Origin: Mytilus edulis
Taxonomy: Eukaryota
Assembly (NCBI RefSeq): GCF_963676685.1
Contig: NC_092354.1
Span: 63,364,001-63,428,000, forward strand
Reading direction: 5' to 3'
Length of the DNA stretch: 64,000 nt
Under the pieces are notes generated by a model, which saw only the letters and a list, made by a program, of their open reading frames with translations, searched no databases and had not been told where the DNA came from. The translations under genes and the position numbers were made by a program. This document shows, piece after piece, positions 260-45,873 of this stretch; the first letter of the stretch is position 1; each line of letters opens with the position of its first letter.

Positions 260-313
260 TTAATTTGAATTGCTGTTAACCAGACATACTACTAAGATGA
301 TTGAAAGCTTCAT
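260..313 (-). pseudogene. Truncated signal-peptide exon of the GGN/W-rich family (MKLSIILVVCLVNSNSN*)
   Basis: ATG AAG CTT TCA ATC ATC TTA GTA GTA TGT CTG GTT matches the family exon 1. It then jumps into intron-homologous sequence and stops at TAA 260-262, so the donor is lost. The promoter homologue follows at about 314-560 with an altered TATA (TATAACA). Confidence 0.8.
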
Positions 314-3897: not shown

Positions 3898-6287
3898 TTA
3901 GCGTTTTCCACCATGTCCGCCATTTCCACCATTCCAACGACCACCGTTTCCTCCATAACCTCCATATCCACCGTTTCCTCCATTACCACCGTCCCAAGTA
4001 CCACCATTTCCACCTCTCCCATAATTCAAACTGTCTCCTCCATTCCCGTCTTTCCAAGTACCACCATTTCCACCATTCCATCCGTTTCCTCCATTCCCGC
4101 CATTCCAAGTACCACCGTTTCCGCCATTTCCAAATCTGGGCTTCCAAGGCTTTGGTGGTCCTTAAAAATGAAACACGTCATAATTAAAGTGTTGGGTCAA
4201 AAGTAATCACTTCTTGAGAAATCAAAATTATTAAAACCTGTTTTACGAAACCACTTAAGAGAGAGCAAAAACGTGGTCTCTAAAGACAGGTGGACTTTAA
4301 AAACAGGTTCATTTTTTTTTAAAATGTACTCAAGAGAGATCTAAAATTAATTGTCTTACAACACATGTTTTTGTTTTATACAGGTGTTCTCTTAAGCATG
4401 TTTGACTGTTATTACAAAAAATATGCTAACGGTATCAAGTATGTATATGAAGCAGTACTCCTGCAAAACTTTCTCAAAGACGAAAGGAAATATTCAATCA
4501 TAGTTCAGATGTAGTGGTCAAGTCCTAAAAATAGCATTTGAAGGAGTTCTTCAATCAAATCTTTACTGACATTAAGGATGCTACTGATAATAGGTTTATA
4601 TTTTGAACTTTTGTTTAAAAAATCACCACAGAGAAACGACTTCAAACTGTATCTATGACAAACCTGACTAATTCAGTTTAATATTTTAACTTTTCATCTT
4701 ATAGTAGGAACAGATCTGAGTCTCAATCGTGTGACATATTTATCAATCGGCAATCCTCGGGAGACTCCGCTACTCTCCTTCTATGAGGTTCGGAATCGGC
4801 CGAGTTGTGACGAATGACACATTTATGTCTCAAATCATGCCTCGCGCATGTGCATGTTTAACAATACAAACTATATTATTTTCATAATCGTATTGGAAGA
4901 CAGTTTGCATAATTCAGAGATGTTTTGTCAACACTGATCGTTTATAGCCACAAAAAAGCTTTTTTAAATAGATAACTTGGACAATTTTTACGTTTGGTTG
5001 TAATACGTAGTACGGTTAATCACAAGACATACCAATTAAGCTGAAAAAGCTACATTATGACGATGTCAGCATACGCATCGTGCCGTCGTCAAAGTTGAAT
5101 TCAAACATTGATGTATCTTAGTAATACAAGAAAAGAAAACTCAAAACACATCAATTATAAGAGGAAAACAACAAACGACAATGCAACATACATGAAAAAA
5201 CTATAAGTTATTGTTCATGACTTGTCACAGGACATTTTAAGAAAAAAAGATGGGCTGTACCTGGTTTGAATGCTAGCCGAATCTCGCTATTTATGGTAAT
5301 ATTAAATATACCGCTAAAATGACAAAAGTTAATGTACATGACGGGAAAACAATATGACGGAGAAATACATAAATAAATAATACAAGAGTACATTTCGACG
5401 CACGAGTGTAATAACGCCACAAAAAGTAACGTCACAGAGAAAAAAAATCAATAAACCTTCCAATAAGGTTTCAATTATGGTATTTAATGTAACTTATAAG
5501 AATTACAAGAATATTAATATAGAATTGTTATGGTAATTGTGCAACTACCTATGTCGGCCTTTTTACCTAATCAAACTGTGTAATAAACAATCCTGTGCAC
5601 ATAGTTGATTTAAACTAAAATCATACAAGTGAACTGGGAGATTAATTATCTCTTCTTTTAGATACGAATAAAACATAAAAAAAGAATCACAAAAACAAAC
5701 ATTAAGACACAAAACAATATCCGATCAGATTTACAAATACAACTTATTAACTAAATATGCGAATTCACAAGTAGAAAAGCAGTCATATTAAGGATTAGGT
5801 CACGTTAGGTACTTAAAAGACAGGACAACATAAATGGTAAACCACAATCTAAGACGTGGAAAACATGTCCTTAGTTAGGACTAGCTTACACACACATATA
5901 TTGTCATATTGATTAGCAGTCTTTTATAAAACTTGTGTATGTTATACTTGTTTGTATTTTAAAACTTTTAATACATCGAGATCGGAATAAAATAGTACGC
6001 TTCTTTAGCAACTGAATAAGAATAGAAGTAAGAAAAACTGCGTTTAAGATAAAACATTTGAAGAAATAAATACTGATGGCAATGTATTGATTAAATTTAT
6101 TTGCCATTTACCAGATGTTCAAGTAATACTTTAAAACAAACTCCACAGTATAATGATATAGAGAAATAAGATTTATGAAATCATGTGAAAAACATGAATG
6201 ATAATTGATATACATTTACTTACTTCTAACCCAAGTTCCAGAAACTGCTACAACCAGACAAACGACTAAGATGATAGTAAGCTTCAT
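3898..6287 (-). CDS. Secreted Gly/Asn/Trp-rich protein A1, 108 aa; exons 6224-6287 and 3898-4160
   Basis: Exon 1 encodes MKLTIILVVCLVVAVSGTWVR, then A|gtaagt. Acceptor tttttaag|GA restores the frame: RPPKPWKPRFGNGGNGGTWNGGNGGNGWNGGNGGTWKDGNGGDSLNYGRGGNGGTWDGGNGGNGGYGGYGGNGGRWNGGNGGHGGKR*. TATATAA at 6327-6333; AATAAA at 3791-3796. Confidence 0.9.
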
Positions 6288-6540
6288 TTTCCTCGTAAGT
6301 TCTACTTTGTGAGAGGAGTACAGATGTTATATAGTCTTGATGAGGACATATAAACACGGATATAAGTAAGGCAACGGGATGCATCTTAATTAATATGAAA
6401 AGTGTATGTCCGTCATGGGCAGATATCCGATACTTGAGCACAATGATTATTTTGTAGATTGTACAATAAGACAAAATGATGGCTGAATAGGTACAACCTT
6501 CTATTATATTTTTTTACGTATAAGGAAAAAGGAAAAAAAA
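6288..6540 (-). promoter_or_regulatory. TATA-containing proximal promoter of A1, conserved across the family
   Basis: TATATAA lies about 40 nt upstream of the ATG. Collinear conserved blocks are shared with the promoters at 18164, 22136, 33181, 45874 and 55683. Confidence 0.75.
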
Positions 6541-8229
6541 AACAGAAAGAAAATTCATATTTTCAATTGTTCAAAGTGTTGAATTGCCTTTTGTAATTAA
6601 AAAAAAAACAAAAAAAAAAACAAAAAAAAAAAACAGTCATAATTTTTTGTCTCTTTTCTCACAATCATTTCAGACAAGATGTCATCATCAAATAAGGCAT
6701 TATTAAAAATGAAACAAGTTATTGCCAAATAATTAATAACGTTTAGTATGTTATTTTTTTTTATAAATGTATGTGGTTAATACGACATTGCATATCGTGT
6801 AAACGATATGTACATTTTTGTAAGCATAGTATTTATTATGCTTAAGTAATATAATTGTTTGTCATTTTAATAAACATTTTTAAAGGTAAGTACTTAGATT
6901 AAATTCATATGAAACTTAAATTTAGAAAAAAAAAATAAAAATAGACAAACCGATAAAATGATAGACAGCTTCATTTTCCACTAAATTTCTAAACTTTGAA
7001 TCGATTTTTTTCAACTATCCACCAAAGTTCAAATGAAGTGGATGTTTGCAATTATGAGCATCTATACGGTCTTCTACAATGAGAAACAATAAATACCTTA
7101 TAGTTATCAGAAATATTAGCAAAGATGGTCTTTATAAAAATAACTATTAAACTTGAAGAACCTTTATACATGATATATGTTATCTGACTTAGACCGCGTT
7201 CACATTGACCTAAACTCGGTATTGAGTAAGTGTAATGCACACGCTAACTTAACACAATTACGTTTTCATTGATAAAACTCAATTACTACATGTAGTTAAA
7301 ATTATGTTTTGTCTACATGCAGTCATTAGTCAATGTAAGCTTTGTGTGGGTTAAGTGTTCACAAAATATGGTATTTAGAACATGAATTTTATCATGTATA
7401 TTTAAAGACAAAACTTTTTTGAATGACATTTATATCTATATCATTAATTAAAAAAGTTGTTTACAGAGTTATAAGTCTATACTTGATATATTGCTTTGTT
7501 ACATAAAGAAAACCAACTTTAGGTAGCTCTAGTTAAATTATTAACCCCTTTTCATGACCTAATCATCGTCATTGGCAAACACATAATTTATTTGAAAATG
7601 TTGTCCAGAAACAACTGGACGTACAAAGAAATATGTGCTGGTCTTTACTAAATAACAAATACCTCATCAATACATTACTAAAAAGAGTGCGGTAAATTGT
7701 ATAGTTAAGTTAGTATCTCAGTTACGGTAAAATGCACTTAGAAATAAAAAAAAGTATTATTGTGCAATGAACGAATTGTTATTTTAATTCCGAATTCGTA
7801 GTTATTAAGAAGTATCTGCATGATATTATTTGTTCATTGCTGTTAGTTGTTTTGTAATTGTGCAACACGTCGACTGCCTAATAGCAAACAAGTGTGAAAT
7901 TGTTGATCACTGCTTTGTCGTTTCTAAAATGACTTCATAAAGGAGCAACTATCTTAAAAAAAGGGGGGATGTTATGTTTTTTTTTCATAGTCTTTTTCGA
8001 GCGAACGCTTTCATGAGTTTTTTCAACGCTATCAATTAAATTATTTTTTCAATATTTGACACGGTAAGGTATGGGAAAACATAGTACTCAGATTTGTTTT
8101 GTGTCCTCTTCTTGACCAGAATATATCTTTTAATTTTTATCAACATGGGATCAGAATATTTTTTTAGGGAAAAAACGATACCCCCCCCCCTTTTTGAACA
8201 AGTGTGGACAAATCTGATGTACAGGTTAT

Positions 8230-8360
8230 TAAATGTTCTTCAACTTTGTACTTGTTTGACTTTATAACTATTTTGATCTGAGCGTCACAGATGAGTCTTA
8301 TGTAGACGAACGCGCGTCTTGCGTATCAAATTATAATCCTGGTACCCTTGATAACTAATA
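8230..8360. repeat. Short interspersed repeat (gagcgtcactgatgagtcttatgtagacgaa.cgcgcgtctggcgt); copies at about 12850-13200, 20470-20600, 27680-28020, 29255-29400, 30600-30765
   Basis: The same core recurs in both orientations at six or more places. Confidence 0.75.
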
Positions 8361-10468
8361 TAGTCCTGTAAAATTATTAATACTGCATACATAGCAAAAT
8401 GGAGCAACGAGTAGCTTTTAATTGATAACTAGTACCAATTAAAACGCATATCTTGTAATTAACGAAAAACATGTTGATAGTTAACACAAAGATTCATATA
8501 ATACTATATAAATAGTATAGTATGTTGGTCCTGGTGTGAGTAGACGGTTATGTTCAAATTACTGTCTACATTAAAGTTCAATTGTGGGTCCTATTTGCAA
8601 TCTGCATTAACATTCATATCAATGTCATTCAAAACCATATCTATCGATCGGAATTTAAAACAAATTCTACCTTAAAGCTAAATGTTAAATTGCAAGATAC
8701 ACACACTATTCGTACAGTGTAGGATAAAATAGAAGTTAATTTTCCCATTGGCTCTTTCTAGTGAGAGAGCAATATATCTTTTGTAGTCTGAGTGGAGTTG
8801 AAATTATACGGATATTGATAAAAATAATAAAATGCGTTTAAATTGGTTTGAGTATTTATCGACATTTGCAGATTTCCGATACTTGAGCGATGTTACAATG
8901 GTTGTTTGTTGTACACAATGACGGAAAGTGTAGCTGATTTGATACTAGCTTTAGTTTTCTTTTGAACAGGAAAAAAGAAAAAGTTAAATATTAATACATA
9001 CAATTTTATAAAATGATGTGTCAGTCTTAAACAATGAAACAAAACCACATACCATAAACATGTAGTCGGCTGTTACAGATCTTATATCGAGCATATAAAA
9101 CAAGTCAATTGAGAAAACTAACGATATATTTGTAACAAAACAATCAACAACAAAAAAGTGATATACATGAACTAACGACATCCACTGAATTACAGGCTCC
9201 TGTATTGATACTATGTTAACTTGACCATTAAATCGTCCGTTCATATATTTGACAGTATATCTATATTGGTTAACCCACAATACTGCATATTTGCAAATAA
9301 ATGCAACATATTCCTTCTTATATACAAACAATATAAAAGAATTCAAATACAGCCGAATGTGGGGATGTGTGTGTAGGAACAAAACCTACAGACAAATTAC
9401 ATAATAACGTGAGTTCATGAAAAGCCGATTGGCATTTTACAATAAAAGCTGTGAATATGCTTGTAAAATTCTGCATGATATTATGAGTCTGTTTACATGC
9501 ATAAAGGTTAAAAACCTAAGCGTCAGTAAAAAGTCGTTAATCATCGAAATGCGCATGTATTGCATTGAAATCGCCACGAATAATGTCATTGTGTACATAT
9601 GCGTGATGTGGTGAGCTATTCAATCTACATTCCCAATATAATTTGCCAATATCAGGTGAAGTCACACTTTTAATATCTAAAGAAAATTGTTGCTTTTTGT
9701 CGTGCTCGAACACGTATCGTAGAATATCACGCTAAATTCATTTTGAAGACGTATGGTTAATTTCCATTTAGTTCAGGTCACACTGTAGCTAATTCACAAA
9801 CGTTGCTTTATTTTCAGATGCATTACTTAAAGTTCTAATGCGATAGTTCTGTATTTTAATATCCGGTTAAGATATGTTTCGGTGTAATTTCATTTGAAGT
9901 AAAATTATGTTTTAAAAGAGAGGCGCAAGATACCAAATGGACATTCAAACTCTAAGTTTAAATTTCCGATATTGTGTCAAAACTGTCTTCAAAAGCAAAG
10001 AAGAGCGCAGAGTAACATTTGGATTGTATTGATAAGTGAAAATAGTTCAAACTCAGTTTAATGTATGTTTTTATACTCATTGGTATACAAGTTCATAAAA
10101 GAGCGTTCGAAGCACCTTTAAAGTGGCGTTCACTTTCTCTTTCAGTTTCTACTGGTAAGTTGTAAGTTGAAGGCAGATGTTTTATAGATTCTGTGAAAAT
10201 TTTGGACAACTTGTTTACAATACGGGATGATTTACAGTTTGATATAATGCATATATATATATATATACATACTTAAATTGACGACATATTCTAACCATTA
10301 AGTGTCTTTTGTTTATTGGTGTTGTCAGGATACTTTCTTATTGGTATATACACTCTGATTTTCAATAAGACATTTTTAAGCATTGGCAAATCAAAAACCC
10401 AAGTAAACACATTTCAATTTTTCTTTTTTTGTGACTTAAAAAAAAAAAAAAAAAAAAGTCAATATATT

Positions 10469-11745
10469 TTAGCGTTCTCCACCATGTCCGTCATTTCCAC
10501 CATTTCAACTTCAATTGTTTCCTCCACGACATCCATATTGACTGGTTCTTCCATTTCCACCATTCCAACGACCACCATTTCCTGCACGACCTCCGTGCTG
10601 ACCCGTTCCTCTATGTCCACCATTCCAACGACCACCATTTCCTCCACGACCTCAATGCTGACCGTTTCTTCCATTTCCACCTTTCCAACAACCAGCATTT
10701 CCTCCACGACCTCCATGCTGACCGGTTTCTTCATTTCCATCATTCCAAGTATCACCATTTTCTCCACGACCTCCATGCTGACCGCTTCCTCCATTTCCGC
10801 TATTCCAACGACCACCATTTCCTCCACGACCTCAATGCTGACCGTTTCTTCCATTTCCACCTTTCCAACAACCAGCATTTCCTCCACGACCTACATGCTG
10901 ACCGGTTTCTTCATTTCCATCATTCCAAGTATCACCATTTTCTCCACGACCTCCATGCTAACCGCTTCCTACATTTCCACCATTCCAACGACCACCATTT
11001 CTTTCACGACCTCCATGCTGACCGCTTCCTCCATTTCCACCATTCCAACGACCACCATTTCCTCCACGACCTCTATGCTGACCGTTTCCTCTATTTCCAT
11101 CATTCCAACGACCACCATTTCCTCCACGACCTCCATGCTGACTGCTTTTTACATTTCCACCATTCCAACGACCACCATTTCCCCCACGACCTCCATGCTG
11201 ACCGGTTCGTCCATTTCCACCATTCCAACGACCACCATTTCCTCCATGACCTCCATGCTGACTGGTTCCTCCATTTCCACAATTCCAATGACCAGGATTT
11301 CTTCCACGACCTCCATGCTGACCGCTTCCTCCATTTCAACCATTCTAACGACCACCATTTCCTCCACGACCTCCATGCTGACTGCTTCCTCCGTTTCCAC
11401 CATGCCATGTATCACCATTCACACTATTCCGACCATTTTCTCCATTCCCACCATTCCAAGTATCACCATTCACACCATTCCGACCATTTTCTCCATTCGC
11501 ACAATTTCCTGCATTCCCACCGTTTTCACCAATCGAACCATTTGCCCCATTCCCACCATTCAAAGTATCACCATTAACACCATTCAAGGTATCACCATGT
11601 CCAACATGTCGGCCATTTTCACCATTTTCACCATTTTCATTATTCGAACCGTGTCCACCATTCCAAGTACCACCGTTACCACCATTTCGACCGTTTCCTC
11701 TATTTCCTCCATACCACGTTTCAACATGTCCATCATTTCCAGTTC
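10469..11745 (-). pseudogene. Repeat-expanded terminal exon of family member C (about 15 x 60-bp units, GGNGGSGQHGGRGGNGGRWN); six in-frame stops and no recognisable exon 1
   Basis: Phase-1 acceptor ggattacag|GA ACT GGA AAT at 11745. The frame is unbroken to GHGGER* at 10469-10471. Premature stops at 11345, 11336, 10832, 10652, 10511 and 10505. Intron and far-upstream homology is present at 13260-13820, but the signal exon and TATA block are missing. Confidence 0.8.
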
Positions 11746-11857
11746 CTGTAATCCAAGCAGATGTAGAATAGTTTAATGAAGAAGCAGATGTATAATAATA
11801 TATTATAATGACGAGTTAAAAGTAATTGACTCTTATACTATATAATTGAAATAAATA

Positions 11858-12738
11858 TGTAGGACTCAAATCTATGGTGGGTTCCAAATCTATGGCAGAT
11901 CCCTAATCTACGGTAAATGTGACGTCATGCCATCCCAAATCTATGGCAGATTATTTACTACCCTAATCTATGGCAAGTTTTGTAGTTTCCTAATCCATGG
12001 TGGATTTTTATTGTTTCCAAATCTATGGCATTTTTTTGGCAAATGGAAAACAATGCAGTACATTTTCGGCCAATGACTTGTCTTAAGAAATATGAAATAT
12101 ACGACAACGGGAACATGTCTATAAACATTTGTGAAATAAACATTCCATAATGGTCAACCAAAAAAAGTAATAAATTATAAATTTAAAAACCTTTATACAG
12201 ACTTCAAAAATGAAATGATGTGCTCTAAAAAATAAACATTTTTTAATCTGTGGATTGTATCTGCTTGATGTGGATTTAATTCAAGTTTGTATCCGTTAAT
12301 TTAATCTTTTACTTTATAAACTTTGCCAGTCGTAGACCGTAGACTACTACTAAAACTCATTTCAAAAATATGCGATACTGAAAATAGTGGTTCCCTTATT
12401 CATCGGGGGCATTGACCGGTACAGCACATTTTGTCCCTCTTCGGAATAGTAGGTCACATCTTCCTTTAAACCACCGGCATATTTTTGTCAGGAAAATAAC
12501 TTCATCTTGAATGGTGTTCAAATCTATGGGTTCCGCCATCGTTAGCGGCGGCGAAGATGTGATATGGCGTTATTCAATTGTGACGTTATATGTTACTCTC
12601 TCCCCCAGATCTGCTATAGATTTGGAGTAAACAAAAATCTGCCATAGATTTGAGTTGCTTGGCGTTTGTAACGTCACATTTGCCATAGATTAGGAATCTG
12701 CCATAGATTTGGAACCCGCCATAGATTTGAGTCCTACA
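11858..12738. mobile_element. MITE with long TIRs, TGT...ACA ends and a 4-bp TSD (Ginger-like ends)
   Basis: tgtaggactcaaatctatgg ... ccatagatttgagtcctaca, with internal aatctatgg repeats. TSD aata at 11854-57 and 12739-42. The empty site is visible in the inverted paralogue at about 28125-28145. Confidence 0.85.
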
Positions 12739-15700
12739 AATATGCTAGCGATATCGAGTATTTTATACGGACCAGCATCTTCACAAAACAGTCTTAGAGA
12801 CAAATGGAGTTCTTTAATTTCATGCTCAGATATATTGTGATGTCCAACCACTGGGTTGATGCTACTTCTAGTGGAGATTTTTTTCCGCGAGGGTATCACT
12901 AGCCCACTTCTGTGTTGACCTGATGTATCAATGATATGTTCATGATAATAAATTAACTGTTAATACATTTTAAGTGTTTGAAAAACTAAGTCTTTTCTTT
13001 TAATAGATTTTCTTATCTATATTTGGCAAAACTTTTAGGAATTTTTGGTCCCCAATGCTCTTCAATTTTATACTTTATTTAGCCTTTTGAAACATTTGTT
13101 GATTCGAGCGTCACTGATGAACCTTTTGTAGACGAATTGCGCGTCTGGCGTAAATATAAAATGTTAATCGTGGTATCTATGATGGATTATCTGTCCAACA
13201 ATTTCGCATATGTAAACAACTCCTTCCATCAAATATTTTCCGAGTTAACTTTATTAACCTAATTAAAGGCTTATTGAAGGACACTACTGATAATAGGCCA
13301 GTGTGTTTCATGTCTTGATAATTGAAATTAAAAGAGAACGACGACTTCCACTGAATTAAAAAAAATGTTACGAATACCTATTTCAAATTTTATCCATTAT
13401 TAGTAACATATCTTGACCACAATCGCATATAATTTGTATTTGTTTAATTTGGTATTTTGCGCATGTGCATGTAACGAACTGCATGAACTATATTAACTAT
13501 GGGCGGCAAAAATAAATGAAGAAATTGTGATGATCAATATTAAGCAAACAAAATGAAATAACATGTACAGCAATTCCTCGAAAACGAATTTATGCTGAGG
13601 TGTGTCTTACCATGTTTGGAAAATGTCATCGTCAAAATAGTTATAAAAAACATTGAGCTTTTATATGATTAAAAACCTATACAGAAAACAATCTGAACAT
13701 ATACCAGGCTTGAAATTTTAAACGTCAGGCGCGCCTTTAATTAAAATCTGGAGTTACTTTTGTTTTCCGTTTTTTTCTCACAACCATATAAGACAAGATG
13801 TCATAATAAAATAAGGCACTATCTCCAGAAAAGCGAGTGGATGTACACATTTGCGGTATTCTGAGTCATTGTATTTAAGTCAGTGCCAGAAGAAATGTTG
13901 CATGATTTAAAGGCAAGTCTTCTTTCTAAATAAATTTCCAACCAAAGGGATGTCATTGACAAGACCAATAATTTCTTGACTATAAACTTATGGCAACACC
14001 ACTTGGTATACCACTCTCCATTTCTTTTCTCGGATAGTACCAAGGGGCCTCCATCTCATCGTTATAATGCCGGCTCAATGGGTATAACATTCGGCCACTT
14101 TGTCTGCTTTCTCCTGTTGTTTAGTCCTCTTGCGGAGCTGAGGAACATCAGATTCTTTATTTTCCTCTTCCACAATCTTTCTCACGGCTAATGAATGGTT
14201 ATTACACTGTAACGTCTTGCCATTACATAACTACATGCTTTTTAGTGCAAGGTGGTTTTATTTCTGTCGACATGAAAGTTTCAGAAAGGTTCTTCTCTAC
14301 AGTCCATTACGTTCAAATACTTAATCCCTGGAATGTGTTATTTGCGATTTTATTCTCGGCTGCATGAATTTTTTTTATTAATTGTTTTTGGCTTTTAACT
14401 AGTAACAGCGAGTACTCTGAACTCGTACTTTCAGGGTTATTTGACCTTTGTAAAGCTTTTTTTTATTATTTAATGTTTAATTATTTAATATTGTATCTTG
14501 CTGTCTATTTTTAATAAGGGGACTTGGCTTAGAGTTTATCGCCGTTAAAGGGATTTCAAATTAATTCTGGTACTAGTCTGCGGTATTCATTTTAGATCCA
14601 GATTCAATAATTTTGGGGATTCGGGTTTGGGTTTTTTTTTTCTTTTTTTTGGGGGGGGGGGAGGGGGTCTGATCCTGAAAACTCGAATATAAAGACATGA
14701 AATTACTTAGTTGCCGAAACGATTAAATGCATAGGCGGACAGGACTGTTCGCTTGCGATGCCCCAGTACTTGTCATTCTATTTATAGTTTTTTGCTTGTT
14801 CAAGAGAGGCTATTTTCAATACCCAATCTCTTAACCTCTGTTGTCATCACAAACAACACCAGTAAGATTACAAAAAAGTATTCCTTCCTCACCAGAGATC
14901 CATGATGATTACTGTTATTAGGTCAAACATGGACATATGTGTGAAAAGACTCTCAGATTGACTTAATCTGAATCTAACCGCATCATTGGTTCTTTAAACC
15001 AGATTATACATACATTACACCCCGAATGTGGCGAAAGTAGATGAGGGAATGCTTATACACATACAATTAAAATAGGTCTGATAATTGCTATGCAATAAGG
15101 GTGCATATAAACACTGATCATATACTTGAAAGGAAACCATTATCTACTTTGGTCTCATATGACTTCTGTTCATTTTCAATATTTAAAAACTACAAGAAAA
15201 CATGTAAATTAGTGCTGGTCAGTGGAAGAGAGGCAAACTATACCAAAGTGACATTCAAACTCACTAGCAAAAAGCGTAAAAAGACCAATAGACGAATAAC
15301 CAATACACAAAACACAACATAGAAAACTTTCCCAACGTTCAAATACGCTGTCAATCATCAAAAGAAAGCATTTTGATTGATAAGGTCAGTTTCAGAGAAA
15401 TTTTTGATTGAATCATAGTAATTTTGTACAAATTAGGATTCATCCCTCTTTAAGACAAGATACTTGTATAAACGTTGAGCATCGTTTTCTTTTTTATCAA
15501 ACAAAACAGAAACAGCTTTTTCAATTGATCATTTAGTTTAGAATGGGGAATACTTTTGTAAAGTGTAGTAAAAATTACATGACCTCTTCAACAGACCGTG
15601 CGATATGGAGAAATTTAATGTTTCTGTTTAATTGGCGTTCGTTCTCTCTTTTGTTGATTTAAATATTTCTTATAACTAATTATTCTGTTTTTAAAATACC

Positions 15701-16253
15701 AAACAGAAAATTATAAGAGACATACGACCATACATGTGTTGTCGTAAAGTTGCCGTCCCATATACCACCTCTTTTGTATATGCATCGGCAGAAAAGTCCA
15801 GTAGACAAACGCACACTGTAAGCAATGTGATTTTCGAAAAAAGTAAGCTTACCGTAGCAGTTAATATGTCATTTCTTTCAGTTTTTTTGGATCATTGTAA
15901 GATAATGGCAGATTTTGAAAAGTTTCTGTAAACTTTTTGAACGTCAACTTGTTTTAAATTCGGGATGATTTACAGTTTGGTGTAGTGTATATACATGTAT
16001 ATTGTTGAAGACGGTATAAAAACCTCTAAATGTTCGCTTGTCCATTTGAATTGTCAGGTACTTTCTTATTGGTATATTTACCACACTCCAATATTCAATA
16101 AATTCATGTTAGAGCATTAAACAAGATAATCACATGCGAACAAAATTTTATTGATATGTTTTTGTGACTTCAAAACAAATAAATCAGAAGAATTATTTGA
16201 ATATTTTGTCACATGTTCATTTGTCATTAGTTCGAAACTCAGTCAGTTATATC

Positions 16254-18163
16254 TTAGCGTTTTCCACCATGTCCGCCATTTCCACCATTCCAGCGACCAC
16301 CTTTTCCTCCACGACCTCCGTATCGACCGTTTCCTCCATTACCACCGTCCCAAGTACCACCATTTCCACCTCTCCCGTAATTCAAACTGTCTCCTCCATT
16401 CCCTCCGTTCCAAGTACCACCATTTCCACCAGTATGTCCGTTTCCTCCATTCCCGCCATTCCAAGTACCACCGTTTCCACCATTTCCAAATCTGGGCTTC
16501 CAAGGCTTTGGTGGTCCTTGAAAATGAAACACGTCATAATTAAAGTGTTGGGTCAAAAGTAATCACTTCTTGTGAAATCAAAATTATTAAAACCTGTTTT
16601 ACGAAACCGCTTAAAAGAGAGCAAAAATGTGGTCTCTAAAGACAGGTGGACTTAAAACAGATTCAATTTATTTCAAATGTACTCAAGAGGGATCTAAAAT
16701 TAATAATGTTACAACACAGGTTTTTGCTTTATACAGGTGGTCTCTCAGGCATGTTTGACTGTTATCACAATACATATGCTAACGGTATCAAGTATGTATA
16801 TGAAGCAGCATTTCAACAAAACTTTCTCAAAGACGAAAGGAAATATTCAATTTTAGTTCAGATGTAGTGATCAAGTCCTAAAACAGCATTTGAAGCAGTT
16901 CTTCAATCAATTCTTTACTGACATTAAGACAAACCTGACTAATTCAGTTTAATATTTTAACTTTTCATCTTATAGTAGGAACACATCTGAGTCTCAATCG
17001 TGTGACATATTTATCAATCGGCAATCCTCAGGAGACTCCGCTACTCTCCTTCTATGAGGTTCGGAATCGGCCGAGTGGTGACGAATGACACATTTATGTC
17101 TCAATTCATTCCTCGCGAATGTCCATGTTTAACAATACAAACTATAATATTTTCATAATCGTATTGGAAAACAGTTTGCATAATTCAGAGATGTTTTGTC
17201 AACACTGATCGTTTATAGCCACAAAAAAGCTTTTTTAAATAGATAACTTGGACAGTTTTTACGTTTGGTTGTAATACGTAGTACGGTTAACCACAAGAAA
17301 TACTAATTAAGCTGAAAAAGCGACATTATGACGATGTCAGCATACGCATCGTGCCGTCGTCAAGATTAAATTCAAACATTGATGTATCTTAGTAATACAA
17401 AAAAAAAAAACAAACCAAACGGCCTCTCCACCTAATTAAACTGCGTAAAAAAATCCTGTGTACATAGTTGGTTTTTAACTAAAATCATACAAGTGCACTT
17501 GGTGATTAATTATCTGTTCTTTTACATACGAATAAAAGATAAAAAAAAATAACCACAACAACAAACAATAAGACACAAAACAATATCCGATCAGAATTAC
17601 AAATACAACTTCTTAACTAAATATTCGAATTCACACTTAGTAAAACAGTCATATTAAGGAATAGGTCACGTTCGGTACCTAAAAGACAGGGCGACATAAA
17701 CGGTAAACCACAATCTAAGACGTCGAAAACATGTCCTTAGTAAGGACTAGCTTACACACACATATAATGTCATATTAATTACCAGTCTTTTATAAAACGT
17801 GAACTAAAACTTGTGTATGTTATACTTTATGTATTTTAAAACTTTTAATACTTCGGAATAAAAAGTACGCTTATTTAGCAACTGAATAAGAATAAAAAAT
17901 AAAAAACTGCGTTTAAAATAAAACATTTGAAGAAATAAATACTGATGGCAATGTATTAATTAAATTTATTTGCCATTTACCAGATCTGTTCAAGTAATAC
18001 TTTTAAATAAAAACTCCAGAGTATAATGATATAGAGAAATAAGATTTATGAAATCATGTGAAAAACATGAATGATAATTGATATACATTTATTACTTACT
18101 TCTAACCCAAGTTCCAGAAACTGCTACAACCAGACAAACGACTAAGATGATAGTAATCTTCAT
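16254..18163 (-). CDS. Secreted Gly/Asn/Trp-rich protein A2, 108 aa; exons 18100-18163 and 16254-16516
   Basis: MKITIILVVCLVVAVSGTWVR A|gtaagt ... ttttcaag|GA, giving RPPKPWKPRFGNGGNGGTWNGG...GGRWNGGNGGHGGKR*. TATATAA at 18203-18209; AATAAA at 16147-16152. Confidence 0.9.
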
Positions 18164-18752
18164 TTTCCTCGTAAGTTCTACTTTGTGAGAGGAGTACAGA
18201 TGTTATATAGTCTTGATGAGGACATACAAACACGGATATAAGTAAGGCAACGGGATGCATATTAATTGATATGAAAAGTGTATGTCCGTCATGGGCAGAT
18301 ATCCGATACTTGAGCATAATGATTGTTTTGTAGGTTGTAAAATAAGACAAAATGATCGCTGAATAGGTACAACTTTCTATTATATTTTCTTACGTATAAG
18401 GAAAAAGTAAAGTAAACAGAAAGGAAATTCATATTTTCAATTGTTCAGAGTGTCTTATAGTTTTCTTATACTTGACAACATATACAGGAAACAAACTCAA
18501 CATAGCTACCAGGCTTTAAATTTGAAACGTTATAATTGCCTTTTGTAATAGAAAAAAAAAACAGTCATCATCTTTTTCTCACTTTTCTCACAACCATTTC
18601 AGACAAGATGTCATCATCAAATAAGGCATTATTAAAAATGAAACAAGATATTGCCAAATAATTAATAACGTTTAGTTATTTTTGTTTATAAATGTATGTG
18701 GTTAATACGACATTGCATATTGTGTAAACGATATGTACATTTTTGTAAGCAT

Positions 18753-18993
18753 AAAATTGAGAATGGAAATGGAGAATGTGTCAAAGAGACAACAACCCGA
18801 CCATAAGGCAGACAACAGCAGAAGGTCACCAACAGGTCTTCAATGCAACGAGAAATTCTCGCACCCGGAGGCGTCCTTCAGCTGGCCCCTTAACAAATAT
18901 ATACTAGTTCAGTGATAATGAACACCCTATTAAACTCCAAATTGTACACAAGAAACTAAAAGTTAAAAAAAATACAAGACTAACAAAGGCCAG
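18753..18993. mobile_element. Short interspersed element insertion (copies at 21301-21543 inverted and 48005-48215)
   Basis: aaattgagaatggaaatg...gagacaacaacccgacc...cagctggcccct. It is absent at the paralogous site near 6825. Confidence 0.75.
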
Positions 18994-21900
18994 AGTATTT
19001 ATTATGCTTAAGTAATAAAATTGTTTGTCATTTTAATAAACATTTTTAAAGGTAAGTACTTAGATGAAATTCATATGAAACTTAAATTTAGAAAAAAAAA
19101 ATAGACAGACCGATAAAATGATGGACAGCTTCATTTTCCGTTAAATTTCTAAACTTTGAATCGATTTTTTGCAACTGTCCACCAAAGTTCAAATGAAGTA
19201 GATGTTTGCAATTATGAGCATCTATACGGCCTTCTACAATGAGAAACAATCAATACCTTATAGTCATAAGAAATATTAGCAAAGATGGTCTTTATAAAAA
19301 TAACTATTTAACTTGAAGTACCTATATACATAATATATGTTATCTGACTTAGGCCGTGTTCACATTGACCTAAGCTCGGTATTGAGTAAGTGTAATGCAC
19401 ACGTTAACTTTAAACATTTATGTTTTCATCGATTAAACTCAATGTCTACATGTAGTTAAAATTATGTTTTGTCTACATGTAGTCATTAGTCTATGTAGGG
19501 CTTTTGTGGGTTAAGTGTTCACAAAATAAGGTATTTAGAACATGAATTTTATCATGTATATTTAAAGAAAAAACATTTTTGGATGACATTTATATTTATA
19601 TCAATAATTCATAAAGTTGTTTACAGAGTTATTAGTCTATACTTGATATATTGCTTTGTTATATAAAGAAAACCAACTATAGGTAGCTATAGTTAAATTA
19701 TTAACCCCTTTTCATGACCTAATCATCGTCATTGGCAAACACATAATTCATTTGAAAATGAAACAACTGGACGTACAAAGAAATATTTGCCACTGGTCTT
19801 TACTCAATAACAAATACCTCATAAATACATTACTAAAAAGAGTGCGGTAAATTGTTTAGTTAAATGTGTATCTCAGTGACGGTAAAATGCACTTAGAAAC
19901 AAAAAAAAAGTATTATTGTGCAATGAACGAATTGTTATTTTAAATCCAAATTCGTAGTTGTCTGATAATATCTGCATGATATTATTTATTCATTGCTCTT
20001 AGTTTTTTTTTGGTAATTGTGCAACACGTCGACTGCCTAATAGCAAACATGTTTGAAATTTGTGACCACTGCTTTGTCGTTTCTCAAAATGACTCCATAA
20101 AGGAGCAACTATCTTCAAAAAAGGGGGGGATGTTTTTTCTGAGTTTTTTATGAACGCTTTTATGAGTTTTTTCAACGCTACCAATTAAATTATTTTTTCA
20201 ATATTTGACATGGTAAGGTATAAGAGAACATAATCCTCAGATTTGTTTTGTGTCCTCTGCTTGACCAGAATATATTTTTTTTATCAACATGGAATCAGAA
20301 TATTTTTTTTAGGGAAAAACGACCCCCCCCCCCCCCCCGCCCTTGTTTTTTAATCAAATGGTCGTTTCCTAACTTCTAGAATAGCTGTTCAAGAAATTTG
20401 AATTCGATTTTATGTAATTAAATTTAAATGACATATTGTGAACAAGTGTGAACAAATCTGATGTACAGGTTTTTAAATGTTCTTCAACTTTGTACTTGTT
20501 TGACCTGATAACTATTTTGATCTCAGCGTCACCGATGAGTCTTATGTAGACGAACGCGCGTCTTGCGTATCAAATTATAATCCTGGTACCCTTGATAACT
20601 ATAATAGTCCTGTAAAACTATTAATACTCAAATTACTGTCTACATTATAGTTCAATTTGGGTCCTATTTGCAATCTGCGTTAAAATTCATGGCAATGTCA
20701 TTCAAAACCATATTTATTGATCGGAATTTAAAACAAATTCTACCTTAAAGCTAAATATTAAATAGCAAGATACACACACTTTTCGTACAGTGTAGGGTAA
20801 AATAGAAGTTAATTTTCCCATTGGCTGTTACTTGTGAGAGAGCAATATATCTTTTGTAGTTTGAGTGGAGTTGAAATTATACGGATATTGATAAAAATAA
20901 TGAAATGCGTTTAAATTGGTTTGAGTATTTATCGACATGTGTAGATTTCCGATACTTGAGCGATGTTACAATGGTTGTTTGGTGTACACAATGACGGAAA
21001 GTGTAGCTGATTTGATACTAGCTTTAGTTTTCTTTTGAACAGGAAAAAGGAAAAATTTGAATCTTAATACATACAATTTTATATACAGACAATATAAAAG
21101 AATTCAAATTTGGTGTTTTCAGGATACTTTCTTATTGGTATATGCATTCAAATTTTCAATAAGACATGTTGAAGCATTGACAAATTAAATTAAAACACAA
21201 GTTAACATATTTCAATTTTTTCTTTTTTGTGACTTTTAAAAAAAATAGTCAATATATTTTAGCGTTCTCCACCAATTTTATTACTTAAGCATAATAAATA
21301 CTCTGGCCTTTGTTAGTCTTGTATTTTTTTAACTTTTAGTTTCTTGTGTACAATTTGGAGTTTAGTAGGGTGTTCATTATCACTGAACTAGTATATATTT
21401 GTTAAGGGGCCAGCTGAAGGACGCCTCCGGGTGCGAGAATTTCTCGTTGCATTGAAGACCTGTTGGTGACCTTCTGCTGTTGTCTGCTCTTTGGTCGGGT
21501 TATTGTCTCTTTGACACATTCCCCATATCCATTCTCAATTTTATGCTTACAAAAATGTACATATTGTTTACACAATATGCAATGTCGTATTAACCACATA
21601 CATTTATAAAAAAAAAATAACATACTAAACGTTATTAATTATTTGGCAATATCTTGTTTCATTTTTAATAATGCCTTATTTGATGATGACATCTTGTCTG
21701 AAATGGTTGTGAGAAAAGTGAGAAAAAGATGATGACTGGTTTTTTTTTCTATTACAAAAGGCAATTATAACGTTTCAAATTTAAAGCCTGGTAGCTATGT
21801 TGAGTTTGTTTCCTGTATATGTTGTCAAGTATAAGAAAACTATAAGACACTCTGAACAATTGAAAATATGAATTTCCTTTCTGTTTATTTGACTTTTTCC

Positions 21901-22136
21901 TTATACGTAAAAAATTATAATAGAAGGTTGTACCTATTTAGCGATCATTTTGTCTTATTGTACAACCTACAAAATAATCATTGTGCTCAAGTATCGGATA
22001 TCTGCCCATGACGGACATACACGTTTCATATTAATTAAGATGCATCCCGTTGCCTTACTTATATCCGTGTTTGTATGTCCTCATCAAGACTATATAACAT
22101 CTGTACTCCTCTCACAAAGTAGAACTTACGAGGAAA

Positions 22137-24517
22137 ATGAAGCTCACTATCATCTTAGTCGTTTGTCTGGTTCTCGCAGTTTCTGGAACTTGGGTTAGGA
22201 GTAAGTAAATGTATATCACTTATGGTTCACATAATTTCAAAAATCTTATTTCTTTACATCATTATACTGTGAATTTTTTTTTAAAGTATTATTTGAACAG
22301 ATCTGGTAAATGGTAAATAAATCTAATTAATACATTTCCATCAGTATTTATTTCTTCAAATGTTTTATTTTAAACGCAGTTTTTCTTATTTTCTATTCTT
22401 ATTCAGTTGCTAAATAAGCGTACTTTTTTTTCCGATGTATTAAAAGTTTTAAAATACAAAAAGTATAACATACACAAGTTTTAGTTCACGTTTTATAAAA
22501 GACTGGTAATCAATATGACAATATATGTGTGTGTAAGCTAGTCCTAACTAAGGACATGTATTCCACGTCTAAGATTGTGGTTTATCGTTTACTTGTCCTG
22601 TCTTTTAGGTACCGAACGTGACCTATTCCTTAATATGACTGTTTTACTAAGTGTGAATTCGAATATTTAGTTAAGAAGTTGTATTTGTTATTGTGATCGG
22701 ATATTGTGTTGTGTCTTATTGTTTTTGGTTTTTGGTTTTTTATCTTTTATTCGTATGTAAAAGAAGAGATAGTTAGTCACCCAGTGCACTCGTATGATTT
22801 TAGTTTAAACCAACTATGCGCACAGGATTTTTTTTTACACAGTTTGATTAGGTAGAAAGGCCTACATAGTTAGTTGAACAATTACTATAACAATTATATA
22901 TTAATATTCTTGTAATTGTTGTAAATTACATTAAATACCACAATTGAAACCTTATATGATTTTTTTTTAATTTTTTTCTGTGACGTTACTTTTTGTTGTG
23001 TTATTACATTCGTGTGACAAACACACAGTTCGTCATTCTATAAAGCTGTTTTTTGTACTGTCCTTAATCAATTTTAATTTTTCGTTATTACTCTGTGATT
23101 GACATGTCGTAATGTACTATTATATTATCTATTTAAATATTTCTCTGTCATATTGTTTTCCCGTCATGTACATTTACTTTTGTCATTTTAGCGTTATATT
23201 TAAGAGTACCCTAAATAGCCAGATTCAAACCAGGTGCAGCCCATCTTCTTTTCTTAAAATCTCCTGTGACAAGTCATGAATAATAACTTATAATTTGTGT
23301 CTATGTATGTTGCATTGTCGTTTGTTGATTTCCTCTTATAATTGATGTGTTTTGGTTTTCTTTTTTTGTATTACTAAGATACATCAATATTTGAATTCAA
23401 CTTTGACAACGGCACGATGCTTATGCTGACATTGTCATAATGTAGCTTTTTCAGCTTAATTGGTTTTTCTTGTGATTAACCGTACTACGTATTACAACCA
23501 AACGTAAAAATGTCCAAATTATCTATATATAAAAGCTTTTTTGTGGCTATAAACGATCAGTGTTGACAAAACATCTCTGAATCATACAAACTGTTTTCCA
23601 ACACGATTATGAAAATAATATACTTTGTATTGTTAAACATGGACATGCGCGAGGCATGAATTGAGACATAAATGTGTCATTCGTCACCACTCGGCCGATT
23701 CCGAACCTCATAGAAGGAGAGTAGCGGAGTCTCCCGAGGATTGCCGAATAATAAATGTGTCACACGATTGAGACTAAGAGGTGTTCCTACAATGAAAAGT
23801 TAGAATATTAAAATGAATTCGTCAGGTTTGTCATAGATACAATTTGAAGTCGTTTTCCTGTGGTGATTTAAAAAAAAGATTTAAACCTATTAACATTAGC
23901 ATCCTTAATGTCAGTAAAGATTTGATAGAAGAACTCCTTGAAATGCTGTTTTTAGGACTTCACCACTATAACTGAACGTAAATCAAATAATCTCTTTTGT
24001 CTTTGAGAAGGTTATGTAGGATTGCTGCTTCATTTGAATACTCAATACTGTTAGCATATTTATTGTAATAACAGTCAAACATGCTTAAGAGATCACCTGT
24101 ATAAAGCAAAAACCTGTGTTGTAAGACCATTAATTTTAGATCCCTCTTGAGTACATTTCAAATAAATTGACTCTGTTTTTAAAGTCCACCTGTCTTAAGA
24201 CACCACTTTTTTGCTCTCTCTGTAGTGGTTTCTTAAAACAGGTTTTTTTATTTTGATATCTCCAGAAGTGATTTCTTTTGACCCAACACTTTAATATTGA
24301 CGTGTTTCATTTTCAAGGACCAAAGCCTAGATTCGGAAATGGCGGAAACGGTGGTACTTGGAATGGAGGCAATGGAGGAGACAGTTTGTATAATGGGAGA
24401 GGAGGACATGGTGGTACTTGGAATGGTGGGAATGGAGGAAGCGGTCTGTATGGAGGTAGTGGAGGAAACGGTGGTCGCTGGAATGGTGGGAATGGCGGAC
24501 ATGGAGGAAAACGCTAA
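22137..24517 (+). CDS. Secreted Gly/Asn/Trp-rich protein A3, 87 aa; exons 22137-22200 and 24318-24517
   Basis: TATATAA at 22091-22097. MKLTIILVVCLVLAVSGTWVR A|gtaagt ... ttttcaag|GA, giving RPKPRFGNGGNGGTWNGGNGGDSLYNGRGGHGGTWNGGNGGSGLYGGSGGNGGRWNGGNGGHGGKR*. AATAAA at 24619-24624. Confidence 0.9.
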
Positions 24518-28240: not shown

Positions 28241-28358
28241 GAACTGGAATGATGGACATATTGGAACGTGGTATGGAGGAAACAGAGGAAACGGTCGAAA
28301 CAGTGGAAACGTTGGTACTTGGAATGGTTGGAATGGTGGACACGGTTCGAATAATGAA
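28241..28358 (+). pseudogene. 5' fragment of a second C-type exon (frameshifted, truncated); its last codons lie at about 21259-21274 on the minus strand
   Basis: gggattacag|GA ACT GGA ATG.. has a 1-nt deletion relative to the exon at 11745. Homology ends at about 28358. Confidence 0.75.
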
Positions 28359-28511
28359 TAACGTTTTTACATTAGCTACATTTGGAACTGAACTGAATTA
28401 TATCATGCAGAATTGTACAAGCATTTTCACAGTTATTATGAACTCATGTAATTGTGTAAACAAAACATGAGCATCACTGATACAAATGGAATATTCAAAC
28501 TCATAAGTCGA

Positions 28512-31512: not shown

Positions 31513-33180
31513 TTACCAGCCTCTCCCACCATTTCCACCATTGCCACCTGTCCATTGACCACCATTTCCGCCATCTTCGTAATTCCAACCATCTCCTCCA
31601 TTTCCACCTCTCCATCGACCACCATTTCCCCCGTATCCGCCATACCCTCCGCCTACGCCTCCGCCATTCCCACCATTCCAAACACCACCGTTTCCACCAT
31701 TCCCAGTTCTGGCGTTCCAATCAGGTTGAGGTTTAGGTTTTGGTTTTGGATCTGAAAAAAAAACCCAGTAATGAGTGAAAGCAATCGGTTTCTCGAACAT
31801 AATCTATAAATACAATAGTGAATATTATATACTGTTTAAAAATTATGGAATTGAAACACAGACTAGATGATCAGATGTAATGTGTTTAATTAGATATTGC
31901 AGATCAAATTTATTCATTTATAGTGTATTAATGTACGTTTTTTGATTGAGTTAAGCCTGCCAATCCTATTGTTTTAGAAAAAGGAAGAAAGCTTGGATCC
32001 ATTAAAACGTTTAATCCCGCTGCAAATGTTTGCACCTGTCCTAAATCAGGAATCTGATGTACAGTAGTTGTAGTTTGTTTATGTAATTTATACGTGTTCT
32101 CGTTTCTCGTTTTTTATTCTATATAGATTAGACCGTTGGTTTTCCAGTTTGAATGGTTTTACACTAGTAATTTTGGGGTCCTTTATAGCTTGTTGTTTGG
32201 TGTGAGCCAAAGCTCCGTGTTGAAGACCGTACATTGACCTATAATGGTTTACTTTCTTTAAATTGTAATTTGGATGGAGAGTTGTCTCATAGGCACTCAC
32301 ACCACAACTTTCTATATCTATTTAAATACATAAATCATAGATACTGTGCGTGTAGATACATTTATGTACTTAATATACTTATGAAGTAGATGAATTCAAA
32401 AGTGTATAAGCCACATCTTATGATATGACAAAATTATGGTTTAGAATAAATAAACTCGTCATATATATCAGATACAATAAATGTGTATATGTAAGATATG
32501 ATGTAGACGAATCAGATACAGTATAATCATTGTAATTTATATAGCGATTATTTTAGGAATACAAATATTGCTATCAAAGTTTTCTGAAACTTAGTATATC
32601 TTTTACATGATAGATTTGTTAAATGAAACAAATACAGTACAAAGAATTACTTCCTACTTATGGAGTCTTCTCCTGAATGTATTATAACATTTGAGCATAC
32701 AACCATTACATTCATACTGGTCTAATGTGAAGAAAAAAGAGAAAGATAACGTCTTTATACCTCAACAGCACCCGAATGTGCTAATGTTCCATGAATTAAA
32801 ACGAATTTGGTTTATCTTATACTTTTAATATTTTATCTCAAAGATAAAAAGTATAAAAGAAATTTTAATTAAAATCTGAATAGGTTCGTTAAACTGGCAG
32901 ATAAATAAAAATAAAAAATTGGATGATTTGAATTTAGAGTAAAATATTGATGATTGTATATTACTTTAATCGTTTTCTAGTTTTCAATCAATTGCCATCA
33001 ACCAGATCTTTACATGGAATCATTTCAGATAAATACATTGCAGTGGAATCAAATCAATTAAAGACTTCTGAAAAAATGTAAACCACATAATTATTACTAA
33101 TAAATCATATACTTACGCCTATGCCAAGTCCCAGAAACTGAAACAACCAGACAGACCACTAAGATGATAGAAAGCTTCAT
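31513..33180 (-). CDS. Secreted Gly/Asn/Trp-rich protein B, 100 aa; exons 33117-33180 and 31513-31751
   Basis: TATAAAA at 33219-33225. MKLSIILVVCLVVSVSGTWHR C|gtaagt ... ttttttcag|AT, giving HPKPKPKPQPDWNARTGNGGNGGVWNGGNGGGVGGGYGGYGGNGGRWRGGNGGDGWNYEDGGNGGQWTGGNGGNGGRGW*. AATAAA at 31417-31422. Confidence 0.88.
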
Positions 33181-43896: not shown

Positions 43897-45873
43897 TCAC
43901 CCATTAAAATTTCTACCATTCCAAAATACACTGCCTCCGCCATTTCCGCCATTCCCACCATTCCAAACACCACCGCTTCCACCATTTCCACCATTCCAAC
44001 TGCTTCCACCATTCCCACCAACCCAAACGCCACCGCTTCCTCCATTTCCACCAGATGGTTGCCATGTTGAAGTTCTTGTGTTCCAACCTCCCGTTCCACC
44101 ACTATTCCCTTGATGACAACCTAAATATAAAAGATATATGGTCTAGTGCTTTCAACAAGTTTAATCCATTGAACAGAGCGTTAACATTTTTAAATTATAT
44201 TAGATTCAACATGCCAAAGAGTTTCAAAAAACTAAACAATTTCAACTGTAATTTATTATAGGTCAAATGCATTTTTATAATAAACAATATTCACTTTTAA
44301 GGAAATTAATCGATATGAGATTGTGTTGATCTTTCAAAACATGTTGTGATAAACCTTTGAATGGTAGGAAGTTCTTTCTACAATACTGGTACCTTGTGAA
44401 TCACATGTGAAATATATTGTTAAAGATATTGTCGGCATAAGTGTGTAGATACACTTATCCATAACATTTGCATTCATTTAAGTACAATATTGTAGATTAT
44501 GAAATTGTTATGTCAACTTTCCCACGTATTTCGTGACAACAGAAGGTAAAACCAAAGTAAGGAATTGGCCGTTGTAGAATCTAAAGCATCATGGGTAATT
44601 TCATTGTTCGTACCTCAAAATGAAAATAACGTCACGTCATTGGTTAAATTTCCATTGTTTATGAAATGTTTAACCAATCAGGACGTTTTGGTGTACACTT
44701 TTGAAAATATTACCCAGAATGCATTAGATTCTGAAACGGTTTTGATATAAAACTTTTACTCACATATGTCACTACATTCTCTGAAAGTTTTGAAACGATT
44801 TGCGTTTCCCTTACAACCTTTGTAGTGAAATTCCTCACACCGTCCGGTTGCCGTGTTATAGTAGAAACGTCTTAACCAGGAGGAACACTGTCCTGAATCT
44901 GGTGGTAAGTTACAACTTTGTTTAGGTGTTGGTCCTGGAAAAAAACAATAACATATGGTGGTAAGGTACAATTAGATTAAGGTTTTGTTCCTGGAAAAAT
45001 ATAAAATCTGAAAGTAAAGTATGGTGGTAAGGTACAATTAGGGTCAAGTTTTGTTCCTGGAAAAAATATAAAATCTGAAGGTAAAGTACAATTAGGGTCA
45101 GGTTTTGTTCCTGGGAAAACATAAAATCTGAAAGTAAGGTACAATTAGGGTCAGCTTTTGTTCCTTGAAAAACATAAAATCTGAAAGTAAAGTATGGTGG
45201 TAAGGTACAATTAGGGTCAAGTTTTTTTCTGGAAAAAATATAAAATCTGAAGGTAAAGTACAATTAGGATCAGGTTTTGTTCCTGGGAAAACATAAAATC
45301 TGAAGGTAAGGTACAATTGAGGTCAGGTTTTGTTCCTGGAAAAACATAAAATCTGAAGATAAGGTACAATTAGGGTCAGGTTTTGTTCCTGGAAAAACAT
45401 AATAGCTGGTGGTTAGGTACAATTAAGTAAACAATTGGTCCTAGAAAAACATAATAGCTGTCATATTTTATTGTGAAAGTAATCTATTCCCCCTTAATAT
45501 GCAATAGCCACAACAGATATGAGATATCATTTTTTTTTCTAATTATAAGCTTTATAAAATATAGTACCCATAGAGTATAAAATAATCAAATGTATGTGTA
45601 TTAAAAGACAGCTAAATATAGTCACATTCAAGCCTAATTAACGTGCAAACTATTTAAACTTTAAAACAAACACAACCTAAAATGCAAAATCAATGAGTGG
45701 AACATTTTAAAGTAAATTAGCAGTCTTAGGATAATCATATAAATATAGTATAAAACTTGTAAAAAAAAAGGTGAACAAAATAACTATTTTTTATAATTGA
45801 TATACTTACGCCTATTCCAAGTTCCAGATACTGCTACAATCAGACAGGCGACTAGGATGATATAAAGCTTCAT
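43897..45873 (-). CDS. Secreted Kunitz/BPTI-domain plus Gly/Asn/Trp-rich protein K1, 152 aa; exons 45810-45873, 44764-44934, 43897-44120
   Basis: TATAAAA at 45913-45919. MKLYIILVACLIVAVSGTWNR C|gtaagt; ttttccag|GA, RPTPKQSCNLPPDSGQCSSWLRRFYYNTATGRCEEFHYKGCKGNANRFKTFRECSDI T|gtgagt; tatttag|GT, CCHQGNSGGTGGWNTRTSTWQPSGGNGGSGGVWVGGNGGSSWNGG...FWNGRNFNG*. All introns are phase 1. Confidence 0.88.
44764..44934 (-). CDS. Kunitz-domain exon of K1
   Basis: Canonical C-x8-C-x15-C-x7-C-x12-C-x3-C spacing, with FYYN and YKGCKGNANRF motifs. P1 is Ser by alignment to BPTI. Confidence 0.93.
44935..45460 (-). repeat. Intronic minisatellite (52-66 bp, about 9 extra units) built from a splice acceptor plus the Kunitz exon start
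   Basis: Unit ttttccag|GA ACA AAA CCT GAC CCT AAT TGT ACC TTA (CCA CCA) resembles the true exon start GA CCA ACA CCT AAA CAA AGT TGT AAC TTA CCA CCA. Confidence 0.85.

Follow-up and report, generated by a model that had tools for sequence, protein, structure and literature searches.

The window analyzed here is a stretch of 64,000 nucleotides of Mytilus edulis (RefSeq assembly GCF_963676685.1, contig NC_092354.1, positions 63,364,001 to 63,428,000), in which three closely similar genes, A1, A2 and A3, encode predicted secreted proteins rich in glycine, asparagine and tryptophan. These genes share both gene ends with D, a Kunitz-bearing gene of the same cluster, and are without its Kunitz exon. 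Descent from a Kunitz gene with a relative in nacre is the more solid of our results. As to function, our analysis leans, by somewhat better than an even chance, towards disordered cationic Gly/Asn/Trp matrix proteins of the shell-forming mantle, which arose when a shell Kunitz gene lost an exon. Mollusc shells hold many secreted low-complexity proteins of the orphan kind, and for most of them the origin can no longer be traced. Here the parent, with Kunitz domain and glycine tail, still lies beside its domain-less offspring, so that one route to such orphans becomes visible.

Gene structure and ancestry of A1, A2 and A3

The predicted proteins are 108 amino acids (aa) long for A1 and A2 and 87 aa for A3. 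In each gene the first coding exon (Table 1) has 64 bases and begins with a signal peptide, which was judged by eye; the phase-1 intron has the ends GTAAGT and AG and splits the second Arg codon as A-GA. Of 24 sequencing runs, four were compared (X1, X3, X15 and X23), with X1 and X3 taken as RNA by guess. In contigs of X1 and X3, positions 4160 and 6226 are joined with two intervening letters, which corresponds to a variant form of the predicted junction; the spliced contig differs from the window at 9 of 234 places and may represent another allele or a sister copy. The depth of the A-type contig was 353 in X1 and 17 in X3. About 6% of the raw RNA run X23 was read, with nearly no exon reads, and X15 is DNA-like, covering the intron and the flank too. 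Spliced A-type contigs occur under two species labels. A-type transcripts thus undergo splicing, and samples differ widely in their level. A large inverted duplication (11636-19023 versus 21273-28358) is the source of A3 and of a truncated B-exon start at 28127-28358, and a short repeat element sits within copies of the A 5' region and is also present elsewhere in the window (18752-18974, 21273-21543 and 47992-48215).

The sequence-only reading of this region missed D and E, two Kunitz-bearing paralogs of the cluster. D has three exons without irregularities, and its Kunitz exon is symmetric (phase 1-1). Its sequence cluster holds five records of M. edulis and M. galloprovincialis (XP_071139165.1, VDI81506.1, CAG2223517.1, CAG2254476.1 and XP_076081715.1), all with automatic names only; three aligned records, of four further ones, are 93-97% identical to D, and the glycine tail has one differing position among four aligned records. 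Just upstream of the D Kunitz exon, at 44896-45460, a unit of 50-60 bases, similar to the acceptor region and the exon start, is repeated in tandem about ten times and could provide alternative acceptors; just downstream of D, at 43572-43720, the 3' part of its glycine exon recurs in degenerate form.

Promoter, signal exon, RR-P head and 3' untranslated region (UTR) are common to D and the A genes. At the DNA level A1 and D agree at 86% of 51 signal bases, 71% of 351 bases in the 5' region and 82% of 45 bases in the 3' UTR, and the Gly/Asn/Trp tail is homologous as well. D and A1 exon 2 could not be aligned by BLASTP, probably because of low-complexity handling, and therefore the homology of A and D rests on DNA. 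A1-A3 differ from D in having no Kunitz exon, more regular repeats, a higher charge and the end GKR instead of FNG. No Pfam match was obtained for A1-A3, and the Kunitz domain (PF00014) is absent from them; in D and E it is present, both Kunitz exons exceeding the Pfam cut-off. No Kunitz remnant was found in the six introns tested. The D alleles read RR-PKPKPSC or RR-PTPKPSC after the signal, and the Kunitz-less exons start with PKPRF (RR-PKPRF in A3), PKPQPAW or PKPKPKPQPDW (the last in C). Since these match, the cationic Pro head of the A proteins is most likely the old linker preceding the first Kunitz cysteine.

E has the head W-x-WGR and differs from D in its tail. Between exon 1 and the Kunitz exon of E the phase is off by one base, which may reflect an error of the assembly, a broken allele or an overlooked micro-exon. 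Of the genes in this cluster, E is the best match for Perna viridis Unigene53667, which, in the S3 and S4 Tables of PMC6641155 as far as shown, has a signal and W-x-WGR head nearly identical to those here, followed by a Kunitz domain and then a GGN tail. Compared by eye, the two proteins agree at 16 of 23 residues in signal and head and at 27 of 55 in the Kunitz part. The Perna protein has features of its own: the second and fourth Cys are missing from its Kunitz domain, a Thr-rich linker is present, the tail shown is devoid of Trp, and the C-terminus is partial. According to the same source it derives from a mantle transcriptome and was identified by mass spectrometry with 2 peptides, in both nacre fractions (the table marks N); it is in neither of the myostracum passages shown. 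Identity of the Kunitz domain is not diagnostic by itself, as other Kunitz domains of this genome are 38-55% identical to that of D, and so it is the signal, head and tail in common that carry the relationship. The residue after the second Cys, which we take to be P1 by analogy with BPTI, is Ser in D and Phe in E, and neither looks like a trypsin inhibitor.

Compared with this mytilid Kunitz-GGN lineage (D, E and Unigene53667), the A-type genes have the homologous signal exon, 5' region and last exon, by DNA against D, with the Perna link drawn by eye via E. The tree of 5' regions from 10 paralogs separates D and E from eight Kunitz-less copies at 99/98, with one change; counting against a firm reading, it is unrooted, H sits on a long branch, and label shuffles scored as low in 28 and 42 of 500. 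The Kunitz form would be ancestral, with a single loss of the domain, probably through a deletion fusing the Pro/Lys linker of the Kunitz-exon start to the glycine exon. It is only the likeness of E to the Perna protein that argues for loss rather than gain.

The GKR end and the RR-P head

A1-A3 had been proposed as precursors of amidated peptides, because of their common end and a dibasic site at the exon junction. The translated models bear out that all three end in HGGKR and a stop. The RR across the junction is likewise present in all three, but the following PPKPWKPRF is that of A1 and A2 only, A3 reading RR-PKPRF without the PWK part. As a processing site the RR is not supported: Pro follows it in A1-A3, and in D the Kunitz domain comes after the same RR-P head. 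Convertases are blocked by a Pro at P1', which makes RR-P a poor site for them, and for this reason the head is probably no propeptide. Among eight translated models (A1, A2, A3, C and D in the window; G, H and B2 outside it), six have the junction RR and five of those six have Pro next. B, F and E are left out of this count, being broken or out of phase.

The amidation claim itself survives in part. The models agree with a secreted, cationic precursor with a formally valid Gly-Lys-Arg end; GKR as a hallmark of the family is not supported, only three of the eight models having it. G ends in WKR, C in GRGW and D in FNG. The three GKR ends count as one observation, chosen after the fact, because the copies are 92-98% identical pairwise over 51 signal-coding bases and stem from one recent triplication. 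In a random draw from the A1 mature composition, an end of the type G[KR][KR] has a chance of 0.5%, and an end of any kind compatible with amidation (G, G[KR] or G[KR][KR]) one of 49%.

Function of the A proteins

The mature A proteins contain 44% Gly, 14-16% Asn, 6-8% Trp and 2-3% Tyr, lack Cys, and have a net charge of +7 to +10 and an isoelectric point of 10.7-11.8. Their repeat unit has about 20 residues, with Trp at regular intervals. Searches for homologues with exon 2 or with P0001 as query returned P0001 only, low complexity weakening such searches; Pfam had no match for the repeats and only sub-threshold signal-peptide matches, and a metagenome scan found no relative. Atlas matches at 0.76-0.81, including PGRS-like clusters, were below the lead threshold and were rejected. 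A polyglycine-II bundle, suggested by the GGN periodicity, was dropped when AlphaFold gave no confident model. Neither the family nor the exon loss is described in the literature looked through, whose scope excluded subscription papers, among them several Mytilus shell and byssus proteomes.

That the A proteins are sticky, disordered matrix proteins secreted by the mantle is suggested, along with the nacre relative of the lineage, by their composition and lack of a predicted fold, by GGN and GN repeats in shell proteins and by the shell-repair response. Such repeats occur in Perna Unigene240, scallop MSP-1, nacrein, N16 and N66 (passages of PMC3896809 and PMC6641155), and two mantle isotigs of M. 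edulis, 48548 and 26479, carry GN repeats (same part of PMC3896809); these isotigs may be pieces of members of this family. In M. edulis, protease inhibitors and disordered secreted orphans alike increase during shell repair, according to the part of PMC8194122 consulted. Similar to low-complexity shell matrix proteins, the A proteins are predicted to be secreted, are repetitive and show no stable fold (predicted local distance difference test score, pLDDT, 37). They resemble nacrein, N16, N66, MSP-1, shematrins and KRMPs in being secreted, Gly-rich and repeat-built; however, no sequence homology to these was found, and A has Asn/Trp instead of Gly/Tyr. KRMPs, as excerpted in PMC3896809, have a Lys/Trp head, a Gly-rich body and a short basic tail, but the Gly/Tyr domain and RKxKY-like tail of KRMPs and shematrins are absent from the A proteins, where Tyr is scarce and the tail is GKR. 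In the proposed mechanism, signal peptidase would cut after VSG and the RR-P head would stay uncut; the 20-residue GGNGG-x-W units would remain flexible and, by charge and Trp/Arg contacts, stick to each other and to chitin or acidic matrix proteins. In A1-A3 the GKR end may be trimmed to an amide by carboxypeptidase and PAM, a step that the family as a whole would not need.

Several observations weigh against a matrix role. The Perna comparison was made by eye only, and the shell localisation holds for a relative closest to E, not for A1-A3 or D; E is the most distant paralog (73-82% in exon 1). The part of Unigene53667 shown has a tail without Trp, and the tail of E is acidic while that of A is strongly basic. 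The motifs WNGG, VSGT and VSGH are absent from all five supplement files of the M. galloprovincialis shell proteome; the shell supplements searched include PMC4517812 and PMC5854119, and one file of the latter gave only an unrelated Mya peptide. This absence from Mytilus shell tables may be due to older transcript sets and to the few tryptic peptides that such repeats yield. AlphaFold gave no fold (pLDDT 37 and 38), as expected for low-complexity disorder, although such values obtained with 6 or 1 sequences are weak evidence of disorder. The GKR end is unchanged in the X1 and X3 contigs. Among seven copies, mean pairwise identity is 0.95 for the KR codons, 0.84 for the preceding 36 bases and 0.69 for the UTR; these better-kept codons favour, on few bases, some function for the basic tail. 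Finally, Kunitz proteins of shells are often filed as protective or immune, at least in the part seen of bioRxiv 2022.09.07.507049, and on that account the matrix and defence readings can overlap.

The strongest alternative, unlikely in our judgement, is that loss of the Kunitz exon let the tail be recruited as a cationic antimicrobial, the A proteins being amidated glycine-rich host-defence peptides. Carboxypeptidase and PAM would trim A1 to an 88-residue peptide with a GHG-amide end and a predicted mass of 8.63 kDa, as against 8,976 Da if GKR were retained. The composition described above, the low chance of the GKR end, KR codons that are intact at the DNA level in six of seven in-frame ends and the many broken copies in the cluster all fit this proposal. 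The A proteins share the Gly-rich, cationic and Cys-free character expected of the acanthoscurrin/ctenidin type. Spider acanthoscurrins and ctenidins provide a precedent, being Gly-rich, cationic peptides of 8.8-10.2 kDa, similar in size to A, with amidation shown for both (PMC6784228, in part). Myticalins, the antimicrobial peptides of Mytilus gill, provide another: in the excerpts available they are cationic and Cys-free, with N-terminal Pro/Arg and Gly plus basic residues as the predicted amidation signal, and they are multigene, in clusters with pseudogenes. The proposal suffers from the same facts that restrict the amidation claim: GKR is confined to three of eight models from one triplication, the intact G has WKR and C has GRGW (the latter also in a second assembly), and Pro follows RR. 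Furthermore, A1 and A2 show no excess of amino-acid change (ratio of nonsynonymous to synonymous change, pN/pS, 0.68, p = 0.36), the D tail is nearly invariant across species, unlike hyperdiverse defence peptides, and the nearest relative with protein evidence sits in nacre.

Kinship with either known group is not supported: the searches gave no homology, and A1-A3 do not have the myticalin layout. Judging from the same excerpts, the dibasic site of myticalins is followed by an anionic C-terminal extension, whereas a stop codon directly follows KR in A; myticalins encode signal and mature peptide in one exon with a phase-1 intron in the extension, whereas the A intron lies 4 codons past the predicted signal cut; and their mature peptides of 17-38 aa in subfamilies A and B have no parallel in A1-A3. 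The spider-type kinship suggested by the sequence-only reading fared no better: acanthoscurrins, ctenidins and armadillidins are, in the sources as excerpted, arthropod haemocyte peptides with other repeats (GGG-F/Y/R in armadillidin), and the resemblance appears to be one of composition only.

A joint version, which we hold to be rather doubtful, would combine both themes: a new amidated Gly/Asn/Trp antimicrobial family, born from a nacre Kunitz inhibitor gene by the loss of one exon and guarding the shell-forming space. All its stages would coexist in the cluster, with Kunitz and acidic tail, Kunitz and Trp tail, and the tail alone with GKR. The natural pairs of the cluster (with and without Kunitz, GKR versus WKR) suit tests of matrix against defence function.

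It is quite improbable that the A proteins are structural or adhesive low-complexity proteins of another secretion, such as byssus, gill or pallial mucus, or a larval or egg coat. Their absence from the portions of the Mytilus shell tables searched and their patchy expression, high in X1, low in X3 and almost nil in X23, would agree with this, but the sole localised relative comes from a mantle transcriptome and sits in nacre (PMC6641155, as far as shown). A basic Gly/Trp/Asn-rich composition resembles mussel foot proteins, yet the low Tyr content leaves little room for dihydroxyphenylalanine (DOPA) chemistry.

Most improbable is that D is the functional gene, the copies without a Kunitz exon being transcribed but left to drift as by-products of an unstable tandem array, as the several broken copies (B, F, the frame change of H and the early stop of B2), an A1/A2 pN/pS not different from 1 and an exon 2 divergence close to that of the intron (5.7% versus 4.5-8.1%) could suggest, since A1-A3, C and G have open frames, in-frame indels and canonical splice sites, spliced contigs occur under two species labels, one at high depth, and 29 columns, mostly Gly, are invariant across six exon-2 sequences.

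Other copies and repeats

An exon-1 DNA search of the genome gave 10 matches, eight within the cluster and two elsewhere on the same contig. G is intact and is RefSeq protein P0001; the hnRNP-like (heterogeneous nuclear ribonucleoprotein-like) annotation of this RefSeq member is misleading. The GRGW end of C occurs also in a C-like exon of model P0006, from another M. edulis assembly. No exon 1 for B was found between B and A2, and no donor was found for exon 1 of F. B2 (L001:644-1701) is a 330-codon open exon of very regular 20-residue repeats with a net charge of +24 and an early stop 20 codons before the GKR end. Two copies are dispersed on the same contig, far from the cluster: H (L006:1214-9321), where a frame change at the tail lets the reading run on, and an exon-1 relic without ATG (L009:79-192).

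Table 1. Exons of the A-type and Kunitz-bearing copies, in positions of the window
Feature	Position	Strand	Remarks
A1 coding exon 1	6224..6287	-	predicted 17-aa signal peptide and TWVR; phase-1 donor; junction in run contigs
A1 exon 2	3898..4160	-	Pro/Lys head, Gly/Asn/Trp repeats (unit of about 20 aa), HGGKR-stop
A2 coding exon 1	18100..18163	-	
A2 exon 2	16254..16516	-	HGGKR-stop at end
A3 coding exon 1	22137..22200	+	inverted copy
A3 exon 2	24318..24517	+	head shorter; HGGKR-stop at end
D coding exon 1	45810..45873	-	86% identity to A1 over signal codons
D Kunitz exon	44764..44934	-	171 nt, phase 1-1, Pro/Lys linker at start; six Cys, last codon split; PF00014 E 1.2e-19
D Gly/Asn/Trp exon	43897..44120	-	FNG-stop; 3' UTR homologous to that of A1; model identical to RefSeq XP_071139165.1 starting at second Met (Met13)
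E coding exon 1	55610..55682	-	signal and W-x-WGR head, as in Perna Unigene53667
E Kunitz exon	53987..54158	-	172 nt, one base out of phase with exon 1 in this assembly; PF00014 E 6.6e-18
E GGN-repeat exon	52904..53406	-	85 Gly, 26 Asn, no Trp; acidic
C coding exon 1	33117..33180	-	junction RH-P, without dibasic site
C exon 2	31513..31751	-	PKPKPKPQP head, GRGW-stop
B long exon	10462..11745	-	A-type repeat, interrupted by stops and a frame change; relic end GGER
F exon 1	260..313	-	truncated; GKR-ending exon 2 just beyond the window at L001:8398-8615

Between C and D, at 38349-41744, there is a tandem satellite with a unit of about 267 bases in about 12-13 copies, more than 90% identical in most pairs. 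Short-period tandem repeats at 28398-28963 and 59698-60371 yield spurious long reading frames. At 51823-51925 a short plus-strand frame with a signal-peptide-like start lies behind an acceptor-like site.

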